Positions 2,861-51,870 of a stretch of 64,000 bases of DNA are shown here, one piece after another. The notes under the pieces are model-generated. The model did no database searches, was not told the origin of the DNA, and was given only the letters and a program-made list of their open reading frames with translations. The stretch is from Vicinamibacterales bacterium (GTDB taxonomy: Bacteria > Acidobacteriota > Vicinamibacteria > Vicinamibacterales > UBA823). The stretch spans positions 31,717-95,716 of the forward strand of contig CBDANA010000008.1 of the NCBI GenBank assembly GCA_965197385.1, read 5' to 3'. How positions within the stretch are numbered: the stretch's first letter is position 1; each line of letters starts with the position of its first letter. The translations under genes and the position numbers were made by a program.

Positions 2861-3139
2861 CTGGGGGCGGTGCTGCTTGCCTGGCCGGACAACCGCGTGA
2901 CGCGGGATATCGACGTGCAGGTGTCGCCGGAGCGGGTCGCGGTTCGGCGGCGGTTCGGCTGGTAGTTCGTGGTGCGCGCTCTTCTCGAGTATCACGAGCC
3001 CCCACTGTTTGTCGCCGTTGGCCCGCAGGCGTTTCAGGTAGCGGTCAAATCGGCTGCATCGGTCCTCGAAGGCGATCTCCATCGGGTCTCGATTCGGAAA
3101 CGAGGGCTTGTGGACGACGCCGGGTGCTTCCGCCATCAA
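2861..3139 (-). pseudogene. Possible N-terminal fragment of the gene interrupted by the IS5-family element
   Basis: ORF 2780..3139 lies on the same strand and runs into the IS. The segment ..EIAFEDRCSRFDRYLKRL.. is loosely like the FE..l motif at the start of Mrr-type nuclease domains. The link to 351..1806 is inferred, not shown. Confidence 0.3.
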
Positions 3140-3215
3140 CTGTTGCTACCCCGCCCTTATCTCGTTCTAACCAAACCGCTTAGACTAGATATTCAGTGCC
3201 AGAGAGGTGCCAGCG

Positions 3216-3473
3216 TCAACATCGGCTGGAAGTATCTGGATGATTAGGGCTTAAGCTCTCTTCACCAACACTTGATGACGGAAGCACCGGACCGTCGCGC
3301 TGGACCCAGCGCCAGATGGTCGTGTGGTCCGCTTCCAGGCCGCGCTCGCGGAGCAGCTCTTCGACATCGCGGAACGAGAGCGAGTACCGAAGGTACCAGC
3401 GCACAGCACAAAGAATCAGCTCGGGCTCGGTTTGTCACCACTTGAAGATCGCCGGTCGGATTGCCTGCTTCAT
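3216..3473 (-). pseudogene. IS6-family transposase remnant (N-terminal ~65 codons, in-frame TGA, 3' truncated)
   Basis: The minus strand reads MKQAIRPAIFKW*QTEPELILCAVRWYLRYSLSFRDVEELLRERGLEADHTTIWRWVQR. This is the IS26-like N-terminus (..AVRWY..Y..SYR..EE...ERG..VDH.TI.RWVQR). A TGA lies at 3435-3437 and homology is lost below ~3285. Confidence 0.8.
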
Positions 3474-3515
3474 GATCTCTTCAGGCTACCAGCCGCCGCT
3501 GGCCAACGTTGCAAC

Positions 3516-9137: not shown

Positions 9138-10860
9138 CCCAGACCGTGTGAAAAGTCCAAGTCGTGGGTCGCTGATCCGGCAGCATCGAGGCTTGAGCAC
9201 GGTGGCGGGCTCGCGACCGCGGCGCCGATCAGTCGGGGCGTCAGTCGTGTCGGTCGCGTGAGGGACTGCTGCGATCGCCTGACGGCCAGATTCGGGCTGA
9301 TTGTCGCCCTGGAAGCGGGCGAAATAGGGGTTCAGCCGGCTGCCGCGGCGATCATCGCGGGAAGTCCCGCGAGATTGATCGCGCGTCGCATGTTGTAGGC
9401 CAAGGCGGTGAGGCTGAACTCCCCGCGGACGTTGTCGAGTCGACGCGTCAGGAACGCGCCCTGGCCCATCCACTGCTTGATCGACCCGAAGGGATGTTCG
9501 ACGGACTCCCGACGACGGTCCATCACCTCGGGCCGAGCCGCGAGGCGAGCCGCCATCCGATCCATCGTGGCTTCGTTCTCGTAGCGGACGAGCCGTCGGT
9601 GGGTGCCTTTGGTGCATCGGTCGCGTCGATCGCAGGACCGGCAGGCTGCGCGATTACCGTAGCTGATCACCCAGATCCCGTCGCGGGTCTTGCCGGCCCT
9701 GCCCCGATACAAGGGCACCAGACGCTGGCCAGCCGGACAACGGTAGGTGTCGGTTGCGGCGTCGTACTGGAACTCGGACTTGGTAACGTGGCCGCTGCTC
9801 CTGGCTGGGCTTCTATCGGGCTTCGGCACGAAGGGCGTGATCCCCCCAGCTTCGCAGTCCTCCATGTCCTCGATCTTGTAGTAGCCGCCGTCCGCGACCG
9901 CATCGAGCTCGTCGACAGCGAGGTTCTGCCGCGCCGCGGTGGCCGTCTCCGCCAGCAGGCCGAGGTCCGAGACCTTGCTGTGGACCTGCTGCTCGGCGAT
10001 CAGGTTGTGCTTGCTGTCGACCGCGATCTGGACGTTGTAGCCCACGCCGACCCGTGTCCCGGAGTGCATCGACCGGGAGTCCGGATCCGTAAGCGACAGC
10101 TGTGCCTCCCCGGTCTCGTCCAGCTTCTGCCGATGGCCCTCCAAGGTCTCCTTGCGTTTGCGGATCGACGCGATCTTGTCCTGAAGGTCCGCTACGGAGT
10201 TCCCTCCACCGCTGGCTGCGTTCGCATCGGCCTCGTTCATCTGTTCGAGGTAGCGTTCCAGCTGGTCGTCGATGCGCTGCAGGTCCCTCTTCAACGTGGC
10301 TCGCGTGAAGTTGCGGTCACGGTTGTTCACCGCCTTGATGCGCGTGCCGTCCACCGCGATCAACTCGCGCCCGTACAGGTCAAGTTCTCGGCATAGCCGC
10401 ACGAACTCCCGAAAGACCTGCCGGAAGGCGCTCCGGTTGTCGCGGCGGAAGTCGGCGATCGTCTTGAAGTCGGGGCGAAGCTGGCGCAGCAGCCAGATCA
10501 CCTCCAGGTTGCGGTGCGTCTCGACCTCCAGGCGCCGGCTGGACCGAACACGGTTGAGATACCCGTAGATGTAGAGCTTCAGCAGATCCGCAGGATCGTA
10601 GCCCGGGCGGCCCTTGTCGTTGGGCCGAACGCGCTGGAACCCCGTCTCCTCGAGATCGAGGCTATCGACGAAGGCATCAATGAAACGGACCGGGTTGTCC
10701 GGCCCCACATAATCGTCCACAGCGTCGGGGAGAAGCAGAAGCTGGGAACGGTCTTCACCGGATATGTGTCCCATGCCGCATTTTACCGAACGCCGTGGTG
10801 ACTCGCCGCTGGCTGATCGACCCTAAGCACTCCTGTCGACGACTTTTCACACGGTCTGGG
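9138..10860 (-). mobile_element. IS1182-family insertion sequence (1723 bp) with perfect 20-bp terminal inverted repeats, inserted at the centre of a palindrome
   Basis: CCCAGACCGTGTGAAAAGTC at 9138-9157 is the exact reverse complement of 10841-10860. The flanks 9104-9137 and 10861-10884 reconstitute the palindrome seen intact at 4403-4462. Confidence 0.88.
9332..10774 (-). CDS. IS1182-family transposase
   Basis: 480 aa, MGHISGEDRSQLLLLPDAVDDYVGPDNPVRFIDAFVDSLDL..GRPGYDPADLLKLYIYGYLNRVRSSRRLE..NLEVIWLL..L.PDFKTIADFRRDN.. Confidence 0.92.
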   Translation of the reverse strand: MGHISGEDRSQLLLLPDAVDDYVGPDNPVRFIDAFVDSLDLEETGFQRVRPNDKGRPGYDPADLLKLYIYGYLNRVRSSRRLEVETHRNLEVIWLLRQLRPDFKTIADFRRDNRSAFRQVFREFVRLCRELDLYGRELIAVDGTRIKAVNNRDRNFTRATLKRDLQRIDDQLERYLEQMNEADANAASGGGNSVADLQDKIASIRKRKETLEGHRQKLDETGEAQLSLTDPDSRSMHSGTRVGVGYNVQIAVDSKHNLIAEQQVHSKVSDLGLLAETATAARQNLAVDELDAVADGGYYKIEDMEDCEAGGITPFVPKPDRSPARSSGHVTKSEFQYDAATDTYRCPAGQRLVPLYRGRAGKTRDGIWVISYGNRAACRSCDRRDRCTKGTHRRLVRYENEATMDRMAARLAARPEVMDRRRESVEHPFGSIKQWMGQGAFLTRRLDNVRGEFSLTALAYNMRRAINLAGLPAMIAAAAG

Positions 10861-11016: not shown

Positions 11017-11862
11017 CTACCGCTGCGCCCTCTCCAAAACACAATACCGATACAGCTTGAGCGACTCGCGCCAGTCTTCCGGATAGGCCGCCACCACCTC
11101 ACCCAATCCGTACTCCTCGGCAAGCCCGAAAAAAGACCCCGCTTCGGCGACCCTGAACGGCGCCTGCTCCTCGAAGACGGTCAGGTCGGGGAACCCGGTG
11201 GGGAACGAGGCGCCCATCGCCCGCTCCATGCCTTCGAGCCACCTGCGATCCTCGGGGTCCGCAGACTCGCGATTCTGCAGGTCCAGCGCGAAGTAGTCGA
11301 AGGCCATGCGGAACGAAGACATCGCGTCAGCCAGCCGGTTGAGGAACGGCATGATGCTCTCTGGAGGCAGGTACATGGTGTTGCCTTCCCATATGATCAG
11401 CGTCGGTGCGTGCGGGTCGAAGCCGAACTCGGCGAGGCCGCCGGGGACGTCAACCTCGAGGTAGTTGGCGAGGAGCGAGGGTGGCTGCGCGAGCGCGCTC
11501 CGCTCCAGGACCACGCGTTTGAATTCGAGAACGGCCTTCTGGTCGACCTCGAAGAACGCGACGTCCGGAACGCCGTACCTGTGGGCGCGCATGTCGAAGC
11601 CGCCGCCGAGCAGCACGACCTGGCGGGCCCCGTCCGCGATCCCGCGCTCGACGAAGCGGTTGAAGTAGCGGGTGCGGAAGCGGACCATGGTCGTCGAATG
11701 GGGAAAGGCGACGTCCAGTTGCCGCGCCGCTCCTCGAGCGCGCTCGTTGGAGAACCATTCGGCGTACGGGTCGCTGAACAGAGGCTCCGGTCTTTCATTC
11801 TCCACTGCGCGAATGGATGCGATGACGAACGCGGTCGCCCCGATTTCGTTAATGTCGATCAT
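11017..11862 (-). CDS. SAM-dependent O-methyltransferase (LCM / TIGR00027-like family)
   Basis: ORF 11017..11955. The likely start is MIDINEIGATAFVIASIRAVE..DPYAEWF.. (ATG at 11862), followed by ..VVLLGGGFDMRAHR..FFEVDQ..IWEGNTMYLP. The upstream extension runs into the IS6 end. Confidence 0.75.
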   Translation of the reverse strand: MIDINEIGATAFVIASIRAVENERPEPLFSDPYAEWFSNERARGAARQLDVAFPHSTTMVRFRTRYFNRFVERGIADGARQVVLLGGGFDMRAHRYGVPDVAFFEVDQKAVLEFKRVVLERSALAQPPSLLANYLEVDVPGGLAEFGFDPHAPTLIIWEGNTMYLPPESIMPFLNRLADAMSSFRMAFDYFALDLQNRESADPEDRRWLEGMERAMGASFPTGFPDLTVFEEQAPFRVAEAGSFFGLAEEYGLGEVVAAYPEDWRESLKLYRYCVLERAQR

Positions 11863-11901
11863 CTCTCTCCTCCTCAAGCAATGCTCGCCTACAATCCAGG
11901 G

Positions 11902-12706
11902 GGTACTGTCAAGTTCAGTGGGAGCGTGGCAGACTTGGCCGATGAAACACGACACGCTGAGCTACCATGGATATCGATTTCCCCCCGAGATCATCAGCCA
12001 CGCCGTCTGGCTGTATCACCGCTTCGGTGTGAGCTTTCGCGATGTCGAAGATCTCCTGGCCCAACGCGGCATCACGGTGTCCTACGAAGCGATCCGGCTG
12101 TGGTGCCTCACGTTTGGTTCAGTATACGCTCGCCGGCTCAAGCGTCGACAGGGCCGGCTGGGCGACATCTGGCACCTGGACGAGGTCTTCGTCACCATCC
12201 AGGGACAGCGGCGCTATCTCTGGCGTGCCGTCGATCAAGATGGTGACGTCATCGATATCCTCGTCCAGTCGCGTCGCGACTGTCGGGCGGCTACACGCTT
12301 TTTCCGCAAGCTGTTGAAGGGTCAGGAGCGTACGCCTGGGCGGTTGGTCACCGACAAGCTGAGCAGCTACAGGGCTGCGCACCGAGCGGCCATGCCGTCC
12401 GTCGCCCATCGCACGGACCGATACGAGAACAATCGTGCCGAAGTCTCCCACCAGCCCACACGGCAACGCGAGCGACACATGCGCCGGTTCAAATCTCCCG
12501 GGCAGGCACAACGATTCTTGTCCGTGCATGGACTCGTCCGCAACCTCTTCCGCGTTGGCCGTCACCTGGTGCGAGCGGTGCATCATCGGGAGCTACGAGG
12601 ACGCTCTTTTCTCATTTGGGATGCAGTCACGCTCGCCGCCTGACTCGAACTGAGATCACGACCCCGAGTACCGGCTCGCTCGACGAACGCTAACTTGACT
12701 GTGAGC
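11902..12706 (+). mobile_element. IS6-family insertion sequence, copy 2 (~805 bp), inverted relative to copy 1
   Basis: The ends are GGTACTGTCAAGTT (11902-) and ..AACTTGACTGTGAGC (12692-12706), sharing the ACWGTCAAGTT core with copy 1. Confidence 0.85.
11942..12643 (+). CDS. IS6-family transposase
   Basis: 233 aa starting at MKHDTLSYHGYRFPPEIISHAVWLYHRFGVSFRDVEDLLAQRG... By eye it is about 70 percent identical to the copy-1 protein. Confidence 0.92.
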   Translation: MKHDTLSYHGYRFPPEIISHAVWLYHRFGVSFRDVEDLLAQRGITVSYEAIRLWCLTFGSVYARRLKRRQGRLGDIWHLDEVFVTIQGQRRYLWRAVDQDGDVIDILVQSRRDCRAATRFFRKLLKGQERTPGRLVTDKLSSYRAAHRAAMPSVAHRTDRYENNRAEVSHQPTRQRERHMRRFKSPGQAQRFLSVHGLVRNLFRVGRHLVRAVHHRELRGRSFLIWDAVTLAA

Positions 12707-12953
12707 ATGATTCCCCTGCCTGTCGGGGTTGCTCAGTGACACCGGTGGGTGCCGGTGGGCGCTGGCCTGACCCACAAGTTGACTGACCTACGGTCCTGGC
12801 TACTGAACTGTCGGTCATCGTCCGTCGGCGATTGACACGGCAACCCGTCTGACCGGATGGGCAGTGACCCAATAGGGGCCTGCTGCAACGTCGACCCATC
12901 ACAGTCCTGTCCGCCCATCCGGCCGACGCACCAGCACCCGAGGAGGCCACCCG
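12707..12953 (+). ncRNA. Structured non-coding left end of the IS110-family element; candidate bridge/seek RNA
   Basis: No credible ORF is present. Local hairpin CACCGG-TGGGTG-CCGGTG (~12742-12759). Long-range pairing of CCGGATGGGC (12853-12862) with GCCCATCCGG (12912-12921). Its position upstream of the recombinase matches the IS110 subgroup. Confidence 0.3.
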
Positions 12954-14039
12954 GTGACGAACCACAGGACTATCCAGCCTGACGCGCGGAAGGTGATCGT
13001 CGGCGTGGACACCCACAAGCACGTCCACGTGGCCGTGGCGATCGACACGAGGGGGGTCCGCCTCGACGATCGATCGTGTGCCGCCGACTCAGACGGCTAC
13101 CAACAGCTGATCACCTGGGCCGAGCGTCACGGCCGCATCGCCGCGTTCGGCATCGAGGGCACCGGCAGCTACGGGGCGGGACTCACTCGCGCGGTCCGGC
13201 GAGCCGGGCACCAGGTGCTCGAAGTGAACCGAGGCGACCGGCGCACACGTCGAATCGCCGGGAAGTCCGACCCCGTGGATGCCGAGACCGCCGCGCGGTC
13301 GGTTCTGGCGGGCCAATCGACCGCCATCCCGAAGACCGCGGACGGAGCGGTCGAGATGATGCGCCACCTCAAAGTCGCGCGCCGGACGGCGGTCAAAGCC
13401 CGCACCTCGGCGATGATCACGCTGAAGCAGATCGTCGTCACCGCGCCGCCCGCGCTGCGAGAGACCCTCAACCCGCTCGCCGACCAGGCGCTCCTCAAAC
13501 GCTGCCGCGGATGGCGCTGCGGCACGATCGATACGCCGACCGCCTCGGCGAAACATACCCTCCGGGCGCTCGCCCGTCGCTGGTTCGCTCTCTCCGTCGA
13601 AATCGTGGACCACGACCGTCACGTGAGTCGACTCACCACCCAGACCTCACCGACGCTGCGTGAGGGCTTCGGCATCGGTGCCGACACCGCCGCCGAACTG
13701 CTGATCATCTTTGGCGACACCCCCGATCGGATTCATTCTGAAGCCGCCTTCGCCAAGCTTTGCGGGGCCTGCCCCATCCCGGCTTCGTCCGGGATGACGA
13801 CGGGGCGCCACCGCCTCTACCGCGGCGGTCATCGCCAGGCCAACGCCGCGCTCCACCGGGCCGTCATCGTGCGGATGCGGTTCCACACACCAACCCTCAA
13901 CTACGTCGAACGACGCACCGCTGAAGGGCGGCCCAAACGGGAGATCATCCGCTGTCTTAAACGCTTTCTCGCCCGCGAGATCTTTCAGCGCGTGATGGCA
14001 GACTACCGAGCGCGCCAAGCCGCAGACTTGGCGGCCTGA
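12954..14039 (+). CDS. IS110-family transposase/recombinase
   Basis: 361 aa, ..VIVGVDTHKHVHVAVAID..FGIEGTGSYGAGL..AGH.VLEVN..KSDPVDAE.AAR.. (DEDD N-domain) and a C-terminal ..PIPASSG....HRL.RGG.RQANAALH... block. GTG start. Confidence 0.92.
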   Translation: MTNHRTIQPDARKVIVGVDTHKHVHVAVAIDTRGVRLDDRSCAADSDGYQQLITWAERHGRIAAFGIEGTGSYGAGLTRAVRRAGHQVLEVNRGDRRTRRIAGKSDPVDAETAARSVLAGQSTAIPKTADGAVEMMRHLKVARRTAVKARTSAMITLKQIVVTAPPALRETLNPLADQALLKRCRGWRCGTIDTPTASAKHTLRALARRWFALSVEIVDHDRHVSRLTTQTSPTLREGFGIGADTAAELLIIFGDTPDRIHSEAAFAKLCGACPIPASSGMTTGRHRLYRGGHRQANAALHRAVIVRMRFHTPTLNYVERRTAEGRPKREIIRCLKRFLAREIFQRVMADYRARQAADLAA

Positions 14040-14070
14040 ACGACCGTCTTGACATATAGGGGCGTCAGTA

Positions 14071-14125
14071 CCTGGCGGGATGCATCGGCGGTCGAATGCA
14101 GCGGGACTTTCACCACGGGTTGCTA
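14071..14125. repeat. Half copy (~53 bp plus TA) of the MITE found intact at 17446-17639
   Basis: TGGCGGGATGCATCGGCGGTCGAATGCAGCGGGACTTTCACCACGGGTTGC-TA is the reverse complement of 17448-17500 with 3 mismatches over the 53 bp. It is cut on its inner side by the IS110-family element. Confidence 0.8.
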
Positions 14126-14194
14126 AGGCTGCCCGGGCCAGGGACGTGTTTGCCCGACACGAGGGTACAATCTCGACCTAAGGCCTCTCCACCC

Positions 14195-15699
14195 ATGGCT
14201 AAACCAGTGGCTGAACCAGGCCGCTTGCGCGTGTCCCGCCTCGTCCCGGCCGTCTGGCTGTGCTTGCTGCTCGCTGGCGGCACTGCCCAGGCGCAGGTGC
14301 CGGACCAGGAGCATGACCTCGGCGCCGGCGACAGCGTCATCCAGATCCTGGGCGGTCTCCTGTTCGACTCGGTGGGCGACAGCGTCCGGCCCAACCCGGG
14401 TCTCCTCATCCGAAACGGCGTCATCCTGGCGGTCGATGCGGAGCTGGGCGACGCCCCACGCGCCGGGGCGACCGTCATCACGCTTCGGGACGACGAGACG
14501 ATCCTCCCGGGACTCTTCGACCTGCACGCCCACTACGCCGTGGACCTGTTCGGCGAGGGCCGGGTCGACGAGTACGACGTCAACCCGCTGGTCTTCCTGG
14601 CGAACGGCGTCACCTCGACGTTTCCTGCCGGTGAGGTCGATCCGGAGGGCATGCGCGCCGCGCGGCTGCGTCTCGACGCCGTGGAGCAGATCGGGCCGCG
14701 TCTTTACAATTCGGGACCCTATTTCGGGACGGCTCGGCCCGGTTGGCAGGCCGGCGACGTCACCGCGGCAGACATTCACCGCGACGTGGACGCCTGGGCG
14801 GCCAAGGGCGCACGGGGGTTCAAGGCGAAGGGAATCCGTCCGGAGCATCTCGAGATCCTCATCGCGCGCGCACACCTCCACGGCCTGCCGGTCACCGGAC
14901 ATCTCGGATCCGGATACCGGCGTTCGGTCAATCCGCGCGATGCCATCGCGATGGGCATCGATCGCATCGAGCACTTTCTCGGCGGCGACGCCCTCACCTC
15001 CGATCGATCGGCCTACGCGTCGCTCGAGGTGCTGGACACCGCGCGCCCAGAGGTCGCGGCGATCATCCAGCAGTATCTCCGCCACCGGGTGTTCTTCGAC
15101 CCCACGCTGACCGCCTACGGATACTTCGGGCAGCGTGAGCCGACGGTGTACGAGTACTGGGCCGACGAGATGGCGCTGCTCACGCCATACGCGCGACGCG
15201 TCGTCGAATCGCGTCTCCCTCGCCGCGTCAGCGCCCAGTTCGAGAGAATCTACTGGATCAAGCGGCGGACCCTGAAGGCGTTCTACGACGCGGGCGGCGC
15301 CGACCTGATCACGCTCGGCACGGACCATCCCAGCTGGGGGGAGTTCTTCTCCGGCTTCGGATCGCACCGGGAGCTGCACGCGATGGTCCTGGCCGGCATT
15401 CCCGAGGCGGCGGCGCTCAAGATCGGCACGATCAACGGCGCCGGGCGCTCGGCGTGAGCGACCGGCTGGGGACGATCGAGCCGGGCAAGCTTGCCGACCT
15501 GATTGTCGTCGCCGGTGATCCGCTGCAGGACATCCGCATGACCCGGCGGGTACGCCTCGTCGTGAAGGCGGGTATCGCCTACGATCCGGCCGAGTTGCTC
15601 GAGTCGGCCCGCGGACGCTTGGGGCCGGCCAGCCAGGACGACGCCGACTGGTGGAAAGGCCGCCTCCGGTTCGCGTCGGCGCGCGAGGAGCAGCCGTGA
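14195..15699 (+). pseudogene. Secreted amidohydrolase-family protein, split by a 1-nt frameshift near 15440-15445
   Basis: ORF 14096..15457 (..ILPGLFDLHAHYAVD..GHLGSGY..IDRIEH..) ends ..KIGTINGAGRSA*. ORF 15454..15699 continues SDRLGTIEPGKLADLIVVAGDPLQDI..VVKAGIAY, the canonical amidohydrolase C-terminus. Adding one C in GCCGGG would restore ..TINGARALGVSDRLGTIEPGK... Confidence 0.85.
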
Positions 15700-16871
15700 C
15701 GACCGTCCGATCCGACACCCGCCGGATCCAAGCGATCCGCCCGCCGGTCGTCGCTGTCATCCAGCGGCTGATCGCATCGACGCCAGGCACCATCTCCCTC
15801 GGCCAGGGCATGGTTCGATTCGGGCCACCGGCGGCGGCGGCCGAAGCGCTGGCACGTGCCGGCGGGTCGCCGGACCTGCATCGCTACGGTCCAGTGGACG
15901 GCTTGCGCCCGCTCGTCGAGGGGTTGGCGGACAAGCTCGAGCAGGACAACGGCATCACCGTCTACCCCGCGAGCCGCGTCGTCGTCACGGCGGGCAGTAA
16001 CATGGGCTTCGTCAACGCGGTCCTGGCCATCGCCGACCCCGGCGACGAAATCGTGCTGCCCGTCCCGTTCTACTTCAATCATGAGATGGCGGTCGTCATG
16101 GCCGGCTGCCGGCCAGTGCCGGTCCCCACTGACGAGCACTACCAGCTCGACCTCGACGCCCTCGAGGAGGCAATCACGCCGCGGACCCGCGCCGTCGTGA
16201 CGGTCTCCCCGAACAATCCGGCCGGCGTGATCTATCCGGAAGCGGCGCTGCGGACCGTCAACACGCTGTGCCGCGATCGCGGCCTGTTCCACATCTCGGA
16301 CGAGCCGTACGAGTACTTCCTCTTCGACGGCGCCACCCACTTCTCACCCGGCAGCCTCCCCGACGCCGGGGCGCACACCATCTCGCTGTATTCCTTTTCC
16401 AAGGCGTTCGGGTTTGCCGGCTGGCGGATTGGCTACATGGTAATCCCGGAGGCGTTGGTCAGCGCGGTCGACAAGATTCAAGACACCATCCTGGTCTGTC
16501 CGCCGGCCGCCAGCCAGTATGCCGCGGCGGGCGCGCTGTCAGTCGGTGTGGCCTACTGTCGCGAACGTTTGCCCGAGCTGGCCGAAGTGCGGCGCATCGT
16601 CCGCGACACGCTGGCCGACGTCTCCGACCTGTGCACGCTGCCGGACGCCGACGGCGCGATGTACTACCTGGCCCGCATCCAGGCGCCGATCGGCTCGCTC
16701 GACCTCGCCACACGCCTGATTCATGAGCACCGAGTGGCGGTCATTCCAGGGACCGCGTTCGGGCTCGCTGACGGATGCTATCTGCGCATCTCCTATGGCG
16801 CCGTGGACGCGCGGGAGGCGGCCGAGGGCACGTCGCGGCTGGCGCGGGGACTGCGTGCGATCGTCGGGTGA
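15696..16871 (+). CDS. Class I/II PLP-dependent aminotransferase
   Basis: ..ISLGQGMVRFGPP..VVVTAGSNMGF..GDEIVLPVPFYFNHEM..VSPNNPAGV..ISDEPYEYF..SFSKAFGFAGWRIGY.. The GTG at 15696 overlaps the upstream stop (GTGA). Confidence 0.88.
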   Translation: MTTVRSDTRRIQAIRPPVVAVIQRLIASTPGTISLGQGMVRFGPPAAAAEALARAGGSPDLHRYGPVDGLRPLVEGLADKLEQDNGITVYPASRVVVTAGSNMGFVNAVLAIADPGDEIVLPVPFYFNHEMAVVMAGCRPVPVPTDEHYQLDLDALEEAITPRTRAVVTVSPNNPAGVIYPEAALRTVNTLCRDRGLFHISDEPYEYFLFDGATHFSPGSLPDAGAHTISLYSFSKAFGFAGWRIGYMVIPEALVSAVDKIQDTILVCPPAASQYAAAGALSVGVAYCRERLPELAEVRRIVRDTLADVSDLCTLPDADGAMYYLARIQAPIGSLDLATRLIHEHRVAVIPGTAFGLADGCYLRISYGAVDAREAAEGTSRLARGLRAIVG

Positions 16872-16905: not shown

Positions 16906-17448
16906 ATGACCGAGCACCTCCCTTACACGGCCACGACCCTGTCGGCAGCCTACGAAGGCATCGACCGTCTCCCGGTGTCGTTGCTCCTCGACAACGTCCG
17001 CAGCCTGTACAACGTCGGAGCCTTCTTCAGGAGCGCCGACGCCGCCGGGCTCGACCACCTCTACCTGTGTGGCTACACGGGTCACCCGCCGAGCCGCGAG
17101 ATCGCGAAGACCGCGCTCGGCGCGGAAACGGCGGTCGCGTGGAGCCGATGCGCCGATCCGCGGGCGCTGCTGGAACGGCTCGCGACGGACGGCGTCGAGC
17201 TCGCGGCGATCGAAACGAGCGTGCGGGCCGTCGATCTGTTCGACTGGGAACCGAGGTTTCCCATCTGTGTCCTGTTCGGGAACGAGGTCGAGGGACTGCG
17301 CGCGGAGTTGCTGGAGCGATGCGACACGCACGTGAGGCTGCCCATGCTGGGTGTGAAGCGCTCGCTCAACGTCGCGACCGCCGGCGGCGTCGTCGCCTAT
17401 GAGCTGCTGCGCAAGTACCGACACCGCCTCGAGCTGGCGCCGCGCTAG
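16906..17448 (+). CDS. SpoU/TrmH-family RNA 2'-O-methyltransferase
   Basis: 180 aa, ..LLLDNVRSLYNVGAFFRSADAAG..LFGNEVEGL..LPMLGVKRSLNVATAGGVVAYEL.. Its TAG stop (17446-17448) is built from the MITE junction. Confidence 0.85.
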   Translation: MTEHLPYTATTLSAAYEGIDRLPVSLLLDNVRSLYNVGAFFRSADAAGLDHLYLCGYTGHPPSREIAKTALGAETAVAWSRCADPRALLERLATDGVELAAIETSVRAVDLFDWEPRFPICVLFGNEVEGLRAELLERCDTHVRLPMLGVKRSLNVATAGGVVAYELLRKYRHRLELAPR

Positions 17449-17639
17449 CAGCCCGTGGTGAAAGTCTCACTGCATTCGACCGCCGATGCATCCCGCCATG
17501 GGCGGCGCTGGGCGTTGTCCACGATGGGTCAAATACTCCCGGTATGCTCCCGCCTCGCGCCTGGCGGGGCCGACCGCTGCCTCGGGCTTGACCTTAGCGG
17601 GGTCTCGGTGCCGCGCTGGACTTTCACCACGGGCTGCTA
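17446..17639. mobile_element. MITE (190 bp) with 19-bp perfect terminal inverted repeats and flanking TA duplication
   Basis: TA-GCAGCCCGTGGTGAAAGTC (17446-17466) ... GACTTTCACCACGGGCTGC-TA (17619-17639). There is no ORF inside. The TA flanks fit IS630/Tc1-mariner-type transposition. Confidence 0.75.
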
Positions 17640-18809
17640 AGCGATCGACCGGGTGAGCATCGCCTCGGCGATCGCCCGGTAGCCCGCCGCCGCGCCGGTC
17701 AGCTGGCTGACCTCAAGATACTCGTCGCAGACGTGCGCGTGGTGCTCCGACGACGGGCCAAAGCCGATCGTCGGGACCCCCGCAGCACCGGCACTGTAGG
17801 CCGCATTCGTGCAGAACTGATAACTCCGCATCGAAGAATCGAGCCGGGCGGCGCGCAGCCCGCCGAGCGCCTGCTGCACGAGCACGTGCGACTCGTCGGT
17901 CTGCCAGGGTGCGTACCACTTCGGCTCGTCCCAGCGTATCCCGGTGTAGCTCTGATAGTCGGTCGTCGCCAGGTGCAGGGTTGTGTCCGCCGCCCCCGCC
18001 CGCGTGCACGCCTCGCGCATCTCGCCGAACAGCATCGCCTGCGTCTCGCCCGGCAGCAGCCGCCGCTCGTAGGTCGCGCGGCAGCCGCTCGGCACGACCG
18101 AGTGCGCCGGGTACGGCACGGAGATCACGTCGGTCAAGCACATCACCCCCCCTCCGACGAACGGATCGGTCGGCATCGGCAGTGCCTCGATCTCGGCGAT
18201 CACGTCCCGCATCACGTGCACGGCATTCAGGCCGCGGTCCGGCGTCGATGCGTGCGACGGCCGGCCGTGTGTCTCGACGACCACTTCCGCCCGGCCGCGA
18301 CCGGCGCGCACGAGGTGCAGCTCGGAGGCTTCCCCGATGACCACGAAATCAGGGTGAATCGACTGCATGACGTGACGGAGCGCCGCACCCTCGATCAGCT
18401 CCTCACCCACGGAAGCCGAGACGACGGCGCGTCCGGCCGTCGCCTCTCGATCCAGCCCGGCCACGGCGTGGACCATCGCCGCCAGCGCGCCCTTCATGTC
18501 CGAGCTGCCACGCCCGTAGATGCGATCATTCTCGAGCGCCGCGCCGAACGGGTCGTGCGTCCAACCCTCACGCGGCACGACGTCGACCGTGTCCATGTGC
18601 GCGTCGAACAGGAGCACGGGGCCGTCTGTGCGCCCCTCGACGACGCCGACCACGTTGCCCGCCTCGTCGGTCGTCACGCGGTCGAAGCCCAGCCGCTCCA
18701 TTTCCTCCCGGACGCGCACAGCCATCGCCTGCTCGTGGCCGAGCACACTCGGCGTCCGCACCAGGGCGCGGGTGAACTCGACCAGCGCCGCCTCGCCTTG
18801 GCCGGTCAT
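17637..18809 (-). CDS. M20-family metallopeptidase/deacylase (ArgE/DapE/YgeY-like)
   Basis: 390 aa, ..LVRTPSVLGHEQ..LLFDAHMDTV..GRGSSDMKGALAAM.. Confidence 0.85.
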   Translation of the reverse strand: MTGQGEAALVEFTRALVRTPSVLGHEQAMAVRVREEMERLGFDRVTTDEAGNVVGVVEGRTDGPVLLFDAHMDTVDVVPREGWTHDPFGAALENDRIYGRGSSDMKGALAAMVHAVAGLDREATAGRAVVSASVGEELIEGAALRHVMQSIHPDFVVIGEASELHLVRAGRGRAEVVVETHGRPSHASTPDRGLNAVHVMRDVIAEIEALPMPTDPFVGGGVMCLTDVISVPYPAHSVVPSGCRATYERRLLPGETQAMLFGEMREACTRAGAADTTLHLATTDYQSYTGIRWDEPKWYAPWQTDESHVLVQQALGGLRAARLDSSMRSYQFCTNAAYSAGAAGVPTIGFGPSSEHHAHVCDEYLEVSQLTGAAAGYRAIAEAMLTRSIA

Positions 18810-24358: not shown

Positions 24359-25627
24359 TCATCGCCCGGCCGCCCGCAGCCGGACAGGGTCGTAGACACG
24401 GCCGTCCTTGACGACACGCCAGATCCGCGCCGTCGCCTCGATCGCGTCGCTGGGGTCGCCCTCCACGACCACGACGTCGGCGTACTGCCCCACGTCGATC
24501 GCCCCCAGCGTGTCGGCGCGGCCGAGCGCCCGCGCCGCCGTCGCCGTCGCACCGCGCAACGCGGCGCATGGGCTCAGCCCGCAGCGCACGAGCAGCACCA
24601 GCTCTTCGTGCAAGTCGCCCAGATCCTCCGTGTCGGTACCGGCGCCAATCGTCACCCCTCGACGGGCGGCCTCGCCCACCATACGGCACGCCGCGTCGAA
24701 TCCACGCAGCGCCCGTGCGCGGTCCTCGGCGCTCCAGCCGCGCGTCAGCGGCACCTGTCCACTCGCCAGGCGATGGCCGAGCACGAGCGTCGGCGTCCAG
24801 ACCGTGCCCGTCTCCGCGAGCCGCTGCAAGAGCCGCCCCGCGCGCGCGGACGATGGATCCAGGTGATTCGCCCAGCGTGTGTAAATCTGGAAAAATGCGT
24901 CGGCCGTCGTGACCGGCGCCGGCCCAGACCACTCTGGCAGCAACTCGCGAAAGATGTACAGGTGTTCGACGCCGTCCACGCCAAAGTCGAGAGCCAGGGA
25001 CAGCGGGACGCTGAGATGCCACGTGACCGGGAGCCCGCGGGCGTGGGCCTCCTGGATGGCGACCTGCGCGTGGGCCGCCGGCGTGCGCATGTAGAGCTTG
25101 ACGAGATCGATCCCGGCGGCTGCCGCCGCAGCAACGTCACGCCGGACCGACCCGCGCGTCTGCCCCGCCAACAGGTCGAGCAGCAGCCCGACGAACAGTC
25201 GAGGCCCAGCCATCCGGCCCGCCTCGATCGCCGCGCGGGTACGGCACGCACGCTCGAGGTCGGCGCCCGGAGCGCGCACGGTGGTCACGCCGTGGGAGAG
25301 CCACCGTGCAGGAGCCGCGGACACGCTGGCCGCGTGCTGATGCAGATCGATGAGCCCCGGGATGACCACACGGCCGCCAACGTCGAGCGTCGCTGCGTCC
25401 AGGGGCAGGCGCAGATCGGCGTCGGCGCCGACCCACCCAACGACGGTGCCCTCGACGACCACGGCGCGGTCCACACCGGGAAACGGCGTGGTGCCGGCTA
25501 GCAGCGTGGCGTGCCGGATGACAAGAAACGGCGCGGACCCGGTCGAGCCGGCCTGCGCGGCCGCGCCGCCGGTCAGGCCGGCTAGGCACGCCGCCGCGAG
25601 CAGCCCGAGGCGAAAATCCCGCTGCAT
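24359..25627 (-). CDS. Secreted amidohydrolase-family protein
   Basis: 422 aa with a signal peptide; ..VVIPGLIDLHQHAA..VDGVEHLY..GAGTD..CGLSP..ALRGATATAARALGR.DTLGAIDVGQYADVVVVEGDP.. Confidence 0.85.
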   Translation of the reverse strand: MQRDFRLGLLAAACLAGLTGGAAAQAGSTGSAPFLVIRHATLLAGTTPFPGVDRAVVVEGTVVGWVGADADLRLPLDAATLDVGGRVVIPGLIDLHQHAASVSAAPARWLSHGVTTVRAPGADLERACRTRAAIEAGRMAGPRLFVGLLLDLLAGQTRGSVRRDVAAAAAAGIDLVKLYMRTPAAHAQVAIQEAHARGLPVTWHLSVPLSLALDFGVDGVEHLYIFRELLPEWSGPAPVTTADAFFQIYTRWANHLDPSSARAGRLLQRLAETGTVWTPTLVLGHRLASGQVPLTRGWSAEDRARALRGFDAACRMVGEAARRGVTIGAGTDTEDLGDLHEELVLLVRCGLSPCAALRGATATAARALGRADTLGAIDVGQYADVVVVEGDPSDAIEATARIWRVVKDGRVYDPVRLRAAGR

Positions 25628-25657
25628 TCGGTTCCTGACCGTAATTCGATGTGACGC

Positions 25658-37643: not shown

Positions 37644-37925
37644 CCGAGCCGGTGGAGCAAGGAGTTTCTCGAGGCCGGCAAGAAGCGTCTTGTCGGCGAT
37701 ACGAGCCGTGAAGCGACGGCCCCCGAGGTCACCGATCTGCGCAAGGAGAATAGCCGCCTGAAGCAGCTCGTGGCCGAGGTCGTCCTCGAAAACCGCCTGC
37801 TCAAAAAAAACGTGACGGGCTCCGACTCGGGAGACGACACGTGCGACTGACGGCGGCCGAGAAGGCCGAAGTCATTCGCTTGGTCGAAGGCTCAGACCCA
37901 GCAGTCTCGGGTCGAAGGAATTCTA
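37644..37925 (+). pseudogene. IS3-family-like transposase remnants (end of OrfA plus first ~25 codons of OrfB)
   Basis: ..HPSRWSKEFLEAGKKRLVGD......VTDLRKENSRLKQLVAEVVLENRLLKK.. is a leucine-zipper OrfA tail. It is followed by the overlapping VRLTAAEKAEVIRLVEGSD.. and is then degenerate. Confidence 0.6.
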
Positions 37926-38059: not shown

Positions 38060-38320
38060 ACGGGATATGTGTTTTAAAAAAACGTCCGCGGCCTGCCTGG
38101 GCCGCACCCAACTGATCATCGTCAAGTTGTCTCCGCGGGTCGACCACCACGGTCCCCCGCGGGACCCACGCGTGCGACCGGCCCATCGCCAGATTCGCGC
38201 CCGGTTTATCCACAAATACGAGCCGCGCGGGATCTACCTGCACGACCCACTGGCAGAACGGGTGACGCGGCTTCTGCCAGGCATGCCCCGGCGAGTGCCC
38301 ACCGGGGTGCACCTTTCGTT
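38060..38320 (-). pseudogene. IS630-family transposase remnant (frameshifted fragment around the first catalytic Asp)
   Basis: ..DPARLVFVDKPGANLAMGRSHAWVPRGTVVV.. matches the ..lvF.DEsG.n..m.r.ygWa.rG.. block. It continues in another frame as ..GDNLTMISWV... Confidence 0.55.
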
Positions 38321-51329: not shown

Positions 51330-51870
51330 ATCCGCCACAGGGTCCGCGCTAGCAGCCCGCGGCCTCCAGAGGACGTCAATCGCCCAGACCTCATCCAGGC
51401 GTTGCGCTAGTCGCTCGAATGCGGCTGGTTCGAGCTTCTTGGTGAGAATGTGGTGCAGCCTCTCACGCCACTCAGCGTCGTCGTTAGACGGATCGTCGGT
51501 CGTACTGCTCTTGGCCTACGGCTTCGTCTTTGGTCCCTCCGTCTTGTCGAGGGCCCTGACGAACTTCACAACTTCGCCCGAATCGATTTCTTCGGTAGCT
51601 TTCGCTTTCGGAGTCAGTGCCCAGACGCCACGGCTTGAGTTCTCCAGCAGTCCAAATTTCCGTAGATAGGTCCGCGCCCAGGCAAGGCGATACGCCACTT
51701 CTGACACATTGCTCTTCTCGGGGTCGTGAAGCTGTCCAAGCACCTCTTCCGGGATGCTCTCCAGTTCAGCAACCTTGTCGTAGATTCCGTCGATCGAGCC
51801 TGACCCCCCCCAAGGCGCAAAGGGCCCGAAGCAACGGGTTCATCAGACTGTCGTATGTTGGCAGCTTCAC
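51330..51870 (-). pseudogene. Mrr-like restriction endonuclease remnant: N-terminal winged-helix (Mrr_N) domain with a +1 frameshift in a C8/G8 tract, an in-frame TAG, and loss of the catalytic domain
   Basis: VKLPTYDSLMNPLLRALCALGG (ORF 51766..52023) continues, after removing one G of the G8 run (51804-51811), as SGSIDGIYDKVAELESIPEEVLGQLHDPEKSNVSEVAYRLAWARTYLRKFGLLENSSRGVWALTPKA.. (ORF 51516..51743). A TAG lies at 51516-51518. The frame then reads ..AEWRERLHHILTKKLEPAAFERLAQRL.. and homology fades. The segment has lower GC. Confidence 0.75.
51804..51811. repeat. C8 (G8 on the coding strand) homopolymer inside the Mrr-like gene
   Basis: Counted directly. It is the site of the +1 frameshift. 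Confidence 0.95.

Follow-up and report, generated by a model that had tools for sequence, protein, structure and literature searches.

A probable MITE flanked by copies of CTAG at the stop codons of two convergent genes in a Vicinamibacterales bacterium

How can a mobile element lie exactly between two convergent genes and leave a stop codon at the end of each? The question is raised by a short non-coding element in a 64,000-nucleotide stretch of DNA from a Vicinamibacterales bacterium (assembly GCA_965197385.1, contig CBDANA010000008.1, positions 31,717 to 95,716; this whole stretch is called the window, and positions are counted from its first letter), between the genes for a SpoU/TrmH-family RNA methyltransferase and an M20 peptidase. 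A preliminary description, made from the letters of the window, read it as a miniature inverted-repeat transposable element (MITE) that had duplicated a TA dinucleotide and had been moved by an IS630-type transposase. Comparing sequences of the element, its copies and its neighbors, we find that it is very probably a MITE, a non-autonomous DNA transposon, and that it was probably moved in trans by a DDE transposase of about 450 aa from the IS5/IS1182 superfamily.

Structure and copies of the element

The element, its flanks and the two genes that they close are as follows.

16906–17448, plus strand: SpoU/TrmH-family RNA methyltransferase gene, 180 aa (PF00588 SpoU_methylase, E 2.4e-30), stop TAG at 17446–17448
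17445–17448, no strand: left target copy CTAG, in which 17446–17448 is the TAG stop of the SpoU/TrmH-like gene
17449–17636, no strand: MITE body, 188 bp, CAGCCC...GGGCTG, non-coding, a long imperfect hairpin
17449–17466, plus strand: left terminal inverted repeat (TIR), 18 nt, CAGCCCGTGGTGAAAGTC, identical to the transposase-proximal (left) end of insertion sequences of 1.44–1.54 kb
17619–17636, minus strand: right TIR, the perfect complement of the left TIR
17637–17640, no strand: right target copy CTAA (CTAG in sister contigs), in which 17637–17639 (CTA) is the reverse complement of the TAG stop of the M20 gene
17637–18809, minus strand: M20 peptidase (YgeY-like) gene, 390 aa (Peptidase_M20 and M20_dimer; NF009555, 384 bits, cut-off 321)

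The perfect repeats, the TA on either side and the lack of coding capacity that had first been noted were all confirmed. The arms of the inverted repeat are 21 nt long (17446–17466 and 17619–17639, 100% complementary, spacing 152 nt), which is the 19-nt repeat of the preliminary description plus TA on each side, and the only open reading frames (ORFs) overlapping the element are trivial ones of 61 and 56 aa, both of which would be broken by indels in the family alignment. With the flanks read as 4-mers, the MITE proper is CAG...CTG at 17449–17636, between CTAG (17445–17448) and CTAA (17637–17640); the element is thus real, although the 190 bp first given for it are best read as 188 bp with 4-bp flanks. 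Four sister contigs carrying the same insertion (L114, L115, L127 and L128, reading CTGCTAG) have CTAG on the right, so the A at 17640 in the window arose afterwards by a point change.

Copies with the same ends are widespread. In the window itself, the 19-mer TIR has four matches with up to three mismatches, compared with 0.03 expected from shuffled sequence: the two MITE ends, 14105–14123 and 25600–25618. An exact scan for GCARCCCGTGGTGAAAGTC, with one genome per species, returned at least 113 loci with ends identical to those in the window, mostly in Vicinamibacterales and other Acidobacteriota; the remaining loci among the matches listed are labelled Planctomycetota, Myxococcota or "delta proteobacteria", Gemmatimonadales and Binatia. 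Pairing of forward and reverse ends gave at least 76 elements, with a sharp size class at 159–162 bp, a class near 270 bp and at least 23 elements of 1444–1537 bp. The window MITE aligns over its full length with part of the short class and, relative to the consensus of about 158 bp, carries insertions of 11 nt and 18 nt. The full-length elements of 1444–1537 bp with the same TIR are all in other genomes.

These comparisons agree with the MITE identity that was first proposed: 18-nt TIRs, a target duplication, a small size without a transposase gene, many dispersed copies with unrelated flanks, an autonomous element with the same ends, and presence or absence among near-identical relatives. 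With at least 113 loci and nine relatives that lack the MITE, the sequence is neither single-copy nor conserved unique DNA. The nine relatives differ from the window by an extra 69 bp, however, and an exact empty site was not found among them.

Target duplication and partner transposase

With the element taken as CAG...CTG, CTAG stands directly before 111 of 176 ends, and the flanking 4-mers are identical for 17 of 23 insertion sequences and 24 of 56 MITEs (all among the matches listed). Because CTAG is palindromic and C-A-G follows it, a duplicated TA with a G...C in the element would read just like a duplicated CTAG, and only non-palindromic targets separate the two readings. Such targets do occur: one insertion sequence is flanked by CTAC/CTAC in L004 and by CTAG/CTAG in L051; CTAA/CTAA flanks were found in L028, L053 and L040 and in a relative on plasmid pLB1; and further matched flanks are TTAG/TTAG (L096), TCAG/TCAG (L044) and CTAAG/CTAAG (L018). 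Eight pairs with matched non-palindromic flanks of 4–5 nt therefore favor 4 bp over the TA duplication originally proposed. In our judgment the duplicated target most likely measures 4 bp, with the sequence CTAG or YTAR, as in IS5, for which CTAG has been reported as the direct repeat (PMC10379815), and in MITEPsy1. CTAG is scarce in the window: it occurs at 33 sites, where trinucleotide frequencies predict 71.

Each long element holds one gene, whose product of about 450 aa contains the Pfam domains DUF772 (PF05598, 1.4e-17) and DDE_Tnp_1 (PF01609, 8.9e-8). We scanned four of these transposases, from different full-length copies, against NCBIfam: the best model for all four is IS1182 (NF033551; 157–179 bits, cut-off 270), the next is IS5_4 (77–96 bits, cut-off 140), and no IS630 model matches any of them. 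The partner thus belongs to the IS5/IS1182 superfamily, closest to IS1182 and a certified member of neither family. Its nearest annotated relatives, 50–53% identical, lie on plasmids of Sphingobium, Novosphingobium, Methylocystis, Solidesulfovibrio and Rhodovastum, and their genes are labelled "IS5 family transposase" or "transposase". Both ends of the MITE correspond to the left, transposase-proximal end of the insertion sequence, and the similarity between the two stops after 18–21 terminal nt. We therefore rejected derivation of the MITE by simple internal deletion of the insertion sequence.

Two other accounts of how the element moved can be set against this evidence. The same element and transposase might have duplicated TA alone, with the outer G and C belonging to the element (GCAG...CTGC, 190 bp) and C-TA-G being a target preference. 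In five pairs (L021, L038, L055, L050 and L061) the distal flank base does depart from C/G while the proximal base stays G/C, the window and copy 2 of the MITE in L114 both read CTAG/CTAA, and a neighboring IS5-family group with AAGTGGTTTCAAAACC ends clearly duplicates TA only. We nevertheless consider duplication of TA alone unlikely: each of the eight matched non-palindromic pairs would need two coordinated changes, whereas a discordant pair needs one point change, at a rate like that of the TA itself. Because the TA has decayed in about 11% of ends, or about 11% per position, single changes in the flanks are expected and coordinated double changes are not. The constancy of the adjoining G/C was rejected as proof that these bases belong to the element, since the database pattern contained that G and the search was biased toward it, and the CTAA of the window was formerly CTAG, as its sister contigs show. 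The more distant account is the original one, an IS630/Tc1-mariner-type MITE with a duplicated TA, mobilized by an IS630 transposase of which a decayed copy would lie at 38060–38320. TA is indeed present on each side of the MITE, IS630 inserts at CTAG and duplicates TA, and a DDE-like motif can be made out by eye on the minus strand at about 38090–38260. For the peptide at 38 kb, however, Pfam, NCBIfam and a tblastn search of plasmids gave no match, and no copy of the TIR was found near it; the full-length elements that do share the ends, at least 23 in number, encode DUF772 plus DDE_Tnp_1 proteins, and the four scanned match IS1182/IS5 and never IS630; and a duplication of TA would not be expected to yield matched non-palindromic 4-mers. 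An IS630 origin is accordingly very improbable.

Duplication of TA, which had been taken as the hallmark of IS630/Tc1-mariner transposition, is not confined to IS630, because the AAGTGGTTTCAAAACC-end group duplicates TA as well. The flanks of this second family read xTA/G...C/TAy with x and y free, a plain TA duplication. It occupies more than 120 metagenome loci, mostly as 141-bp copies, and its full-length copies of 892–898 bp carry a frameshifted IS5-family transposase gene that scores above the cut-off of the IS5_3 model.

Stop codons supplied by the target

CTAG contains TAG on both strands, so its duplication rebuilds stops for genes reading in from either side, and no special event is needed. 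The stops had been described as TA plus the first nucleotide of the TIR; TAG does stand at both edges of the element, but each stop codon lies wholly within the duplicated target. The apparent precision with which both stops were rebuilt is explained by the CTAG target. In the mechanism that we propose, the enzyme would integrate at the rare palindrome CTAG, or more loosely YTAR, duplicating 4 bp, and a copy landing on a TAG stop preceded by C would leave an intact stop for the genes on either side. Insertions at such stops would therefore be harmless and would persist.

To score a flank as a stop, we required an in-frame ORF of at least 80 codons with the best and a high third-position G+C content. 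Three of the 52 MITEs that could be evaluated on both sides have stops in both flanks (the window, L022:6552-6754 and L063:3186-3342), 12 have one and 37 have neither, so that a flank forms the stop of a neighboring gene in 15 of 52 (about 29%) of these short copies. Among 19 insertion sequences with the same ends, the corresponding numbers are 0, 2 and 17, and 472 empty CTAG sites in the same 0.88 Mb comprise one double stop (L012:5580), 61 single stops and 410 with neither. The excess of double stops at MITEs over empty CTAG sites (Fisher p = 0.008) is only suggestive because the window is the discovery case. Stops supplied by the flanks are a trait of the family, a by-product of the CTAG target, and no special adaptation at this junction.

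History of the TrmH/M20 junction

We compared the window with 21 related contigs, reached via the TrmH-like protein and its 90% cluster. The junction takes the following forms, and every allele keeps a functional stop for both genes.

Allele A (window, L114, L115, L127, L128): TrmH ends in CGC, then the TAG of the left CTAG; MITE between; M20 stop in the right CTAG (CTAA in the window only)
Allele B (L117–L120, L136, L137): TrmH ends in CGC-TGA; 66-nt spacer; M20 stop in CTAG
Allele B+IS (L121, L122, L135): as B, plus a 1.3-kb IS5-family element within that CTAG, with CTAG on both sides; M20 stop in CTAG
Allele C (L123–L126): a different TrmH C-terminus (RHRLRA*); unrelated GC-rich sequence of 144 nt (139 in L126); M20 stop TTA
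Allele D (L129): TrmH broken in its TGA, ending ...APRC*; a different inverted-repeat element (CTCTAATGTGACAAAAG); contig ends before the M20 stop
Allele E (L116, an 87% relative): TrmH ends in TGA; a spacer of 33 nt and a MITE between two copies of CTAG; M20 stop 6 nt past the right CTAG

With at least five different structures among close relatives, this junction is a hotspot. The preliminary description had derived an empty site in which the two genes shared a single TA; no relative has it, and the nine contigs without the MITE (alleles B and B+IS), whose TrmH-like proteins are 99% identical, show TGA, a 66-nt spacer and CTAG instead. TGA followed by GCCRCC is found both in the close relatives with allele B and in the more distant L116 (allele E), so TGA plus a spacer is the older state. 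Since the relatives without the MITE keep that state, the lineage of the window needs an insertion plus a loss: relative to allele B, allele A has the MITE in the CTAG of the M20 stop and lacks 69 bp (TGAGCC...GGACAC, with a 2-nt CT microhomology), and the 180-aa protein is unchanged. The IS5-family element in allele B+IS (L121:3612-4940, also in L122 and L135; NF033581, 272 bits; ends CAGGTTGCTGAAG... and ...TTTTCAGCAGCCTG) is an independent insertion into the CTAG of the M20 stop.

The MITE would thus have targeted the CTAG at which the M20 peptidase gene stops, at a time when the methyltransferase gene either still ended, as the relatives show, in TGA followed by the 66-nt spacer or had already lost them. 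The 69 bp would have gone in the lineage of the window, leaving the methyltransferase ORF to end, with its protein unchanged, at the TAG of the left target copy; the loss may have come before the insertion, which would then have struck overlapping stops, or after it, as trimming flush with the base of the hairpin. The contigs fit either order. A search of the Joint Genome Institute (JGI) metagenomes for the junction at the M20 end (CTARGCGATCGACCGGGTGAG) gave 0 matches, an exact look-up of the M20 protein of the window returned no record, and eight TrmH-like proteins (that of the window, the representative protein P0001, P0002 of the 87% relative and five members of the P0001 cluster) led to no intermediate or exact empty-site allele.

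The MITE of allele E (L116:3578-3735, 158 bp) has a core that is 80% identical to the consensus of the window family (98/122). Its ends are unrelated to that family (33–39% identity) and are of the AAGTGGTTTCAAAACC type of the TA-duplicating IS5 group, in which the family core occurs at none of the 120 loci fetched. The L116 element would therefore be a chimera between the core of one family and the ends of the other.

Folding and possible function

The 194 nt of the element with its immediate flanks fold at -109.8 kcal/mol (z -6.2 relative to shuffled sequences) and the other strand at -102.6 kcal/mol (z -5.3). Across the family, the fold is one long imperfect hairpin in which many pairs are kept by changes on both sides; this covariation is no proof of an RNA function because a hairpin of RNA or of DNA would fit it equally. 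Given read-through, both convergent transcripts would carry this hairpin of the MITE in their 3′ ends, and an effect on transcript stabilization, processing or insulation is conceivable. The strong bidirectional terminator that had been suggested found no support: 17200–17900 showed no promoter-like sites and, on either strand, no stem-plus-T-run sites, and the outer stem encloses 152 nt and is followed by AGCGAT or GCGCGG, so that a canonical bidirectional terminator, with a T run after the stem, is unsupported.

It is also conceivable, if doubtful, that the family of about 158 bp is not inert but built for gene boundaries. Its core would then be a selected functional module, such as a 3′-end stabilizer or insulator of convergent transcripts or a transposition enhancer, that has been captured by more than one transposase lineage. 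The observations behind this idea are the CTAG stops on both sides, an outward-facing ATG in the MITE ends that is apparently the start of at least two genes (25627 in the window and P0135 in L132), a 122-nt hairpin core kept by compensatory changes, and the same core in L116.

Weighing the junction and the identity of the element

Concerning the order of events, one version holds that the 69-bp deletion came first and joined the two genes at their 3′ ends on a single CTAG (CGCGCTAGGCG), and that the MITE then struck the shared stop; the empty site of the preliminary description would in that case have been a short-lived intermediate. This version takes as many events as an insertion that is trimmed afterwards; the layout with both stops recurs at L022 and L063, where repeated flush trimming would be a coincidence; and one unoccupied double-stop CTAG exists (L012:5580). 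Such sites are very rare, however (1/472), and the fused site is present in 0/9 relatives without the MITE, all of which have TGA and the 66-nt spacer, as L116 has TGA and a spacer. Deletion that is stimulated by a hairpin and ends at the base of the palindrome is a known process and would explain trimming after insertion. We rate a prior deletion as a serious possibility at a little under an even chance. Far less can be said for the view that the sequence is not mobile at all and is instead a conserved intergenic structured RNA, or a terminator common to both genes. The strong fold on both strands and the compensatory changes in the family hairpin would suit it, but the sequence matches no Rfam family and holds no stem-plus-T-run site, is absent from nine near-identical relatives and is present at many unrelated sites flanked by CTAG; we regard this view as scarcely tenable. 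The Rfam 15 search gave no match around the element (E<=1) and none at gathering score across the 64-kb window.

Several results do weigh against a CTAG-duplicating MITE moved by an IS5/IS1182-superfamily transposase. The flanks of the five discordant pairs fit a TA-only duplication unless point mutation is assumed. The partner transposase falls under the curated cut-offs of IS1182 and of every IS5 model, which makes its family label approximate. No full-length partner was found in the 64-kb window, where the sole match is a different, bona fide IS1182 element, and beyond the terminal repeats the MITE and the insertion sequences have nothing in common. Finally, the junction contigs include no precise empty site, no spacer plus MITE (GGACACTAGCAGCCCG) and no fused site (CGCGCTAGGCG; CGCGCTAGGCGATCG).

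Other copies and mobile DNA in the window

Beyond the element at 17449–17636, the window holds two partial copies and, next to one of them, an IS110-family element.

14073–14126, minus strand: truncated second MITE copy, its last 50 nt at 14073–14122 plus a CTAA flank at 14123–14126, 94% identity over 53 nt
12954–14039, plus strand: IS110-family transposase gene (NF033542, 159 bits, cut-off 140), in an element at 12650–14072
25599–25630, plus strand: decayed MITE end, 26/31 bases matching the MITE terminus

The right end of the IS110 element, at 14072, cuts the second copy within its internal palindrome (cccgcca/tgggcgg). The other half of the copy was not found in the window, and an IS6-family gene abuts the left side of the IS110 element. 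Relatives keep the second copy whole (L114:41-219, 82% identical to the first copy, with flanks CTAG/CTAA), and because both L114 and L115 have it intact, the IS110 insertion is recent. No known guide RNA was recognized by Rfam in the IS110 region. A minus-strand ORF at 14123–15811 that ends in the repeat of the second copy was dismissed as spurious, as it has no domain match and the relatives annotate a plus-strand amidohydrolase there. That amidohydrolase (14096–15699, plus strand) is a single 491-aa product in L114 and L115 and is split here into ORFs at 14096–15457 and 15454–15699, which suggests a frameshift, whether in a pseudogene or from a sequencing error.

On the minus strand, the gene for a secreted-looking amidohydrolase (24359–25627) takes its ATG and first codons (MQRDF...) from the decayed end at 25599–25630. 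In a 93% relative (L132), the flank of the relic is still CTAG and a further complete MITE (TTAG...TTAC) lies inside it (L132:1330-1560); the protein called there, P0135, starts at an ATG internal to the MITE (MQQDFHHGLL-RLGLL...). In a 77% relative (L134), the amidohydrolase starts with ATGCAGAGG and no MITE is recognizable. A 13-nt match (CTAGCAGCCCGCG) at 51349 is too short to be called a copy.

The first 14 kb of the window are dense in insertion sequences. They include the bona fide IS1182-family transposase gene (9332–10774, minus strand; NF033551, 399 bits, DUF772 plus DDE_Tnp_1_6), which is 24% identical to the partner of the MITE, the IS6-family gene (11672–12643, plus strand; NF033587, 206 bits) and, at 3289–3515 on the minus strand, the 5′ part of another IS6-type gene, 92–94% identical to copies in L023 and L011. 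The segment at 3123–3253 is 98.5% identical to DNA flanking a full-length insertion sequence with the ends of the MITE in L001 (6272–6402), and the similarity stops at the end of that element; it may be the unoccupied version of the L001 site or another repeat. Further along, an IS3-type OrfA-like fragment with a leucine-zipper motif was seen by eye at 37700–37900 (plus strand). The G+C content of the window is 66.9%, and the 64 kb contain no tRNA gene.

Comparison with known systems

For annotation, these results mean that a TA beside inverted repeats is no proof of IS630, as a CTAG-duplicating IS1182-like group and a TA-duplicating IS5 group both occur in these genomes. The uncharacterized MITE and insertion sequence family spans several phyla with identical ends, and we found no description of it in the literature searched. 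The TrmH/M20 junction, with at least five structures at one place, is useful as a natural archive of the ways in which mobile elements can reshape the ends of genes that stay intact.

The element shares with IS630/Tc1-mariner transposons the TA within its duplication, and IS630 is known to prefer CTAG; the element differs from them in its transposase family and in a duplication best read as 4 bp. The Correia elements of Neisseria and comparable hairpin-forming MITEs of bacteria are 100–160 bp long, with TIRs, TA-containing duplications and long hairpins, and are often found at gene ends and co-transcribed; size and hairpin layout are similar here, the sequences are unrelated, the hosts are different, and the promoter and terminator roles are those of Correia elements. 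The IS1182 family resembles the partner in length (about 450 aa against a 488-position model) and in its DUF772 plus DDE_Tnp_1 architecture, but the partner stays below the 270-bit cut-off and shares 24% identity with the true IS1182 transposase in the same window. A related insertion sequence, annotated as "IS5 family transposase", is that of plasmid pLB1 (AB244976.1, 39.6–41.0 kb), whose transposase is 50–53% identical over its full length; it is about 1.46 kb long, has CTAA on both sides and related ends (ACAGGCCGTTGACGAAGTC and GCAGCGCGGTGACGAAGTC), and has copies in Sphingobium and Novosphingobium plasmids, whereas it comes from Alphaproteobacteria and has a different terminal sequence. 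Like the partner, IS5 of E. coli and its group have a DDE transposase whose N-terminal domain is of the DUF772 type, and their direct repeat is likewise one of 4 bp of the CTAG type (PMC10379815), although the partner reaches only 77–96 bits on IS5_4 against a cut-off of 140.

In behavior, the element is closest to MITEPsy1 of Pseudomonas syringae, which, with its IS5-family partner ISPsy2, targets CTAG (or YTAA) and leaves these 4 nt duplicated (PMC3189936). Both are short and non-coding, with TIRs of about 18 nt in common with an IS5-type insertion sequence and a 4-nt CTAG duplication (PMC3189936). MITEPsy1 differs in its ends (GGAAGGTCTGAAAAAGCC), in its length of 100 nt against 158–188 here and in having a bona fide IS5-family transposase as its partner; the window MITE is paired with a transposase of about 450 aa for which IS1182 is the nearest family, and it has a core unrelated to the insertion sequence. 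The element is thus a new MITE of an already known type, targeting CTAG and derived from the IS5 superfamily.

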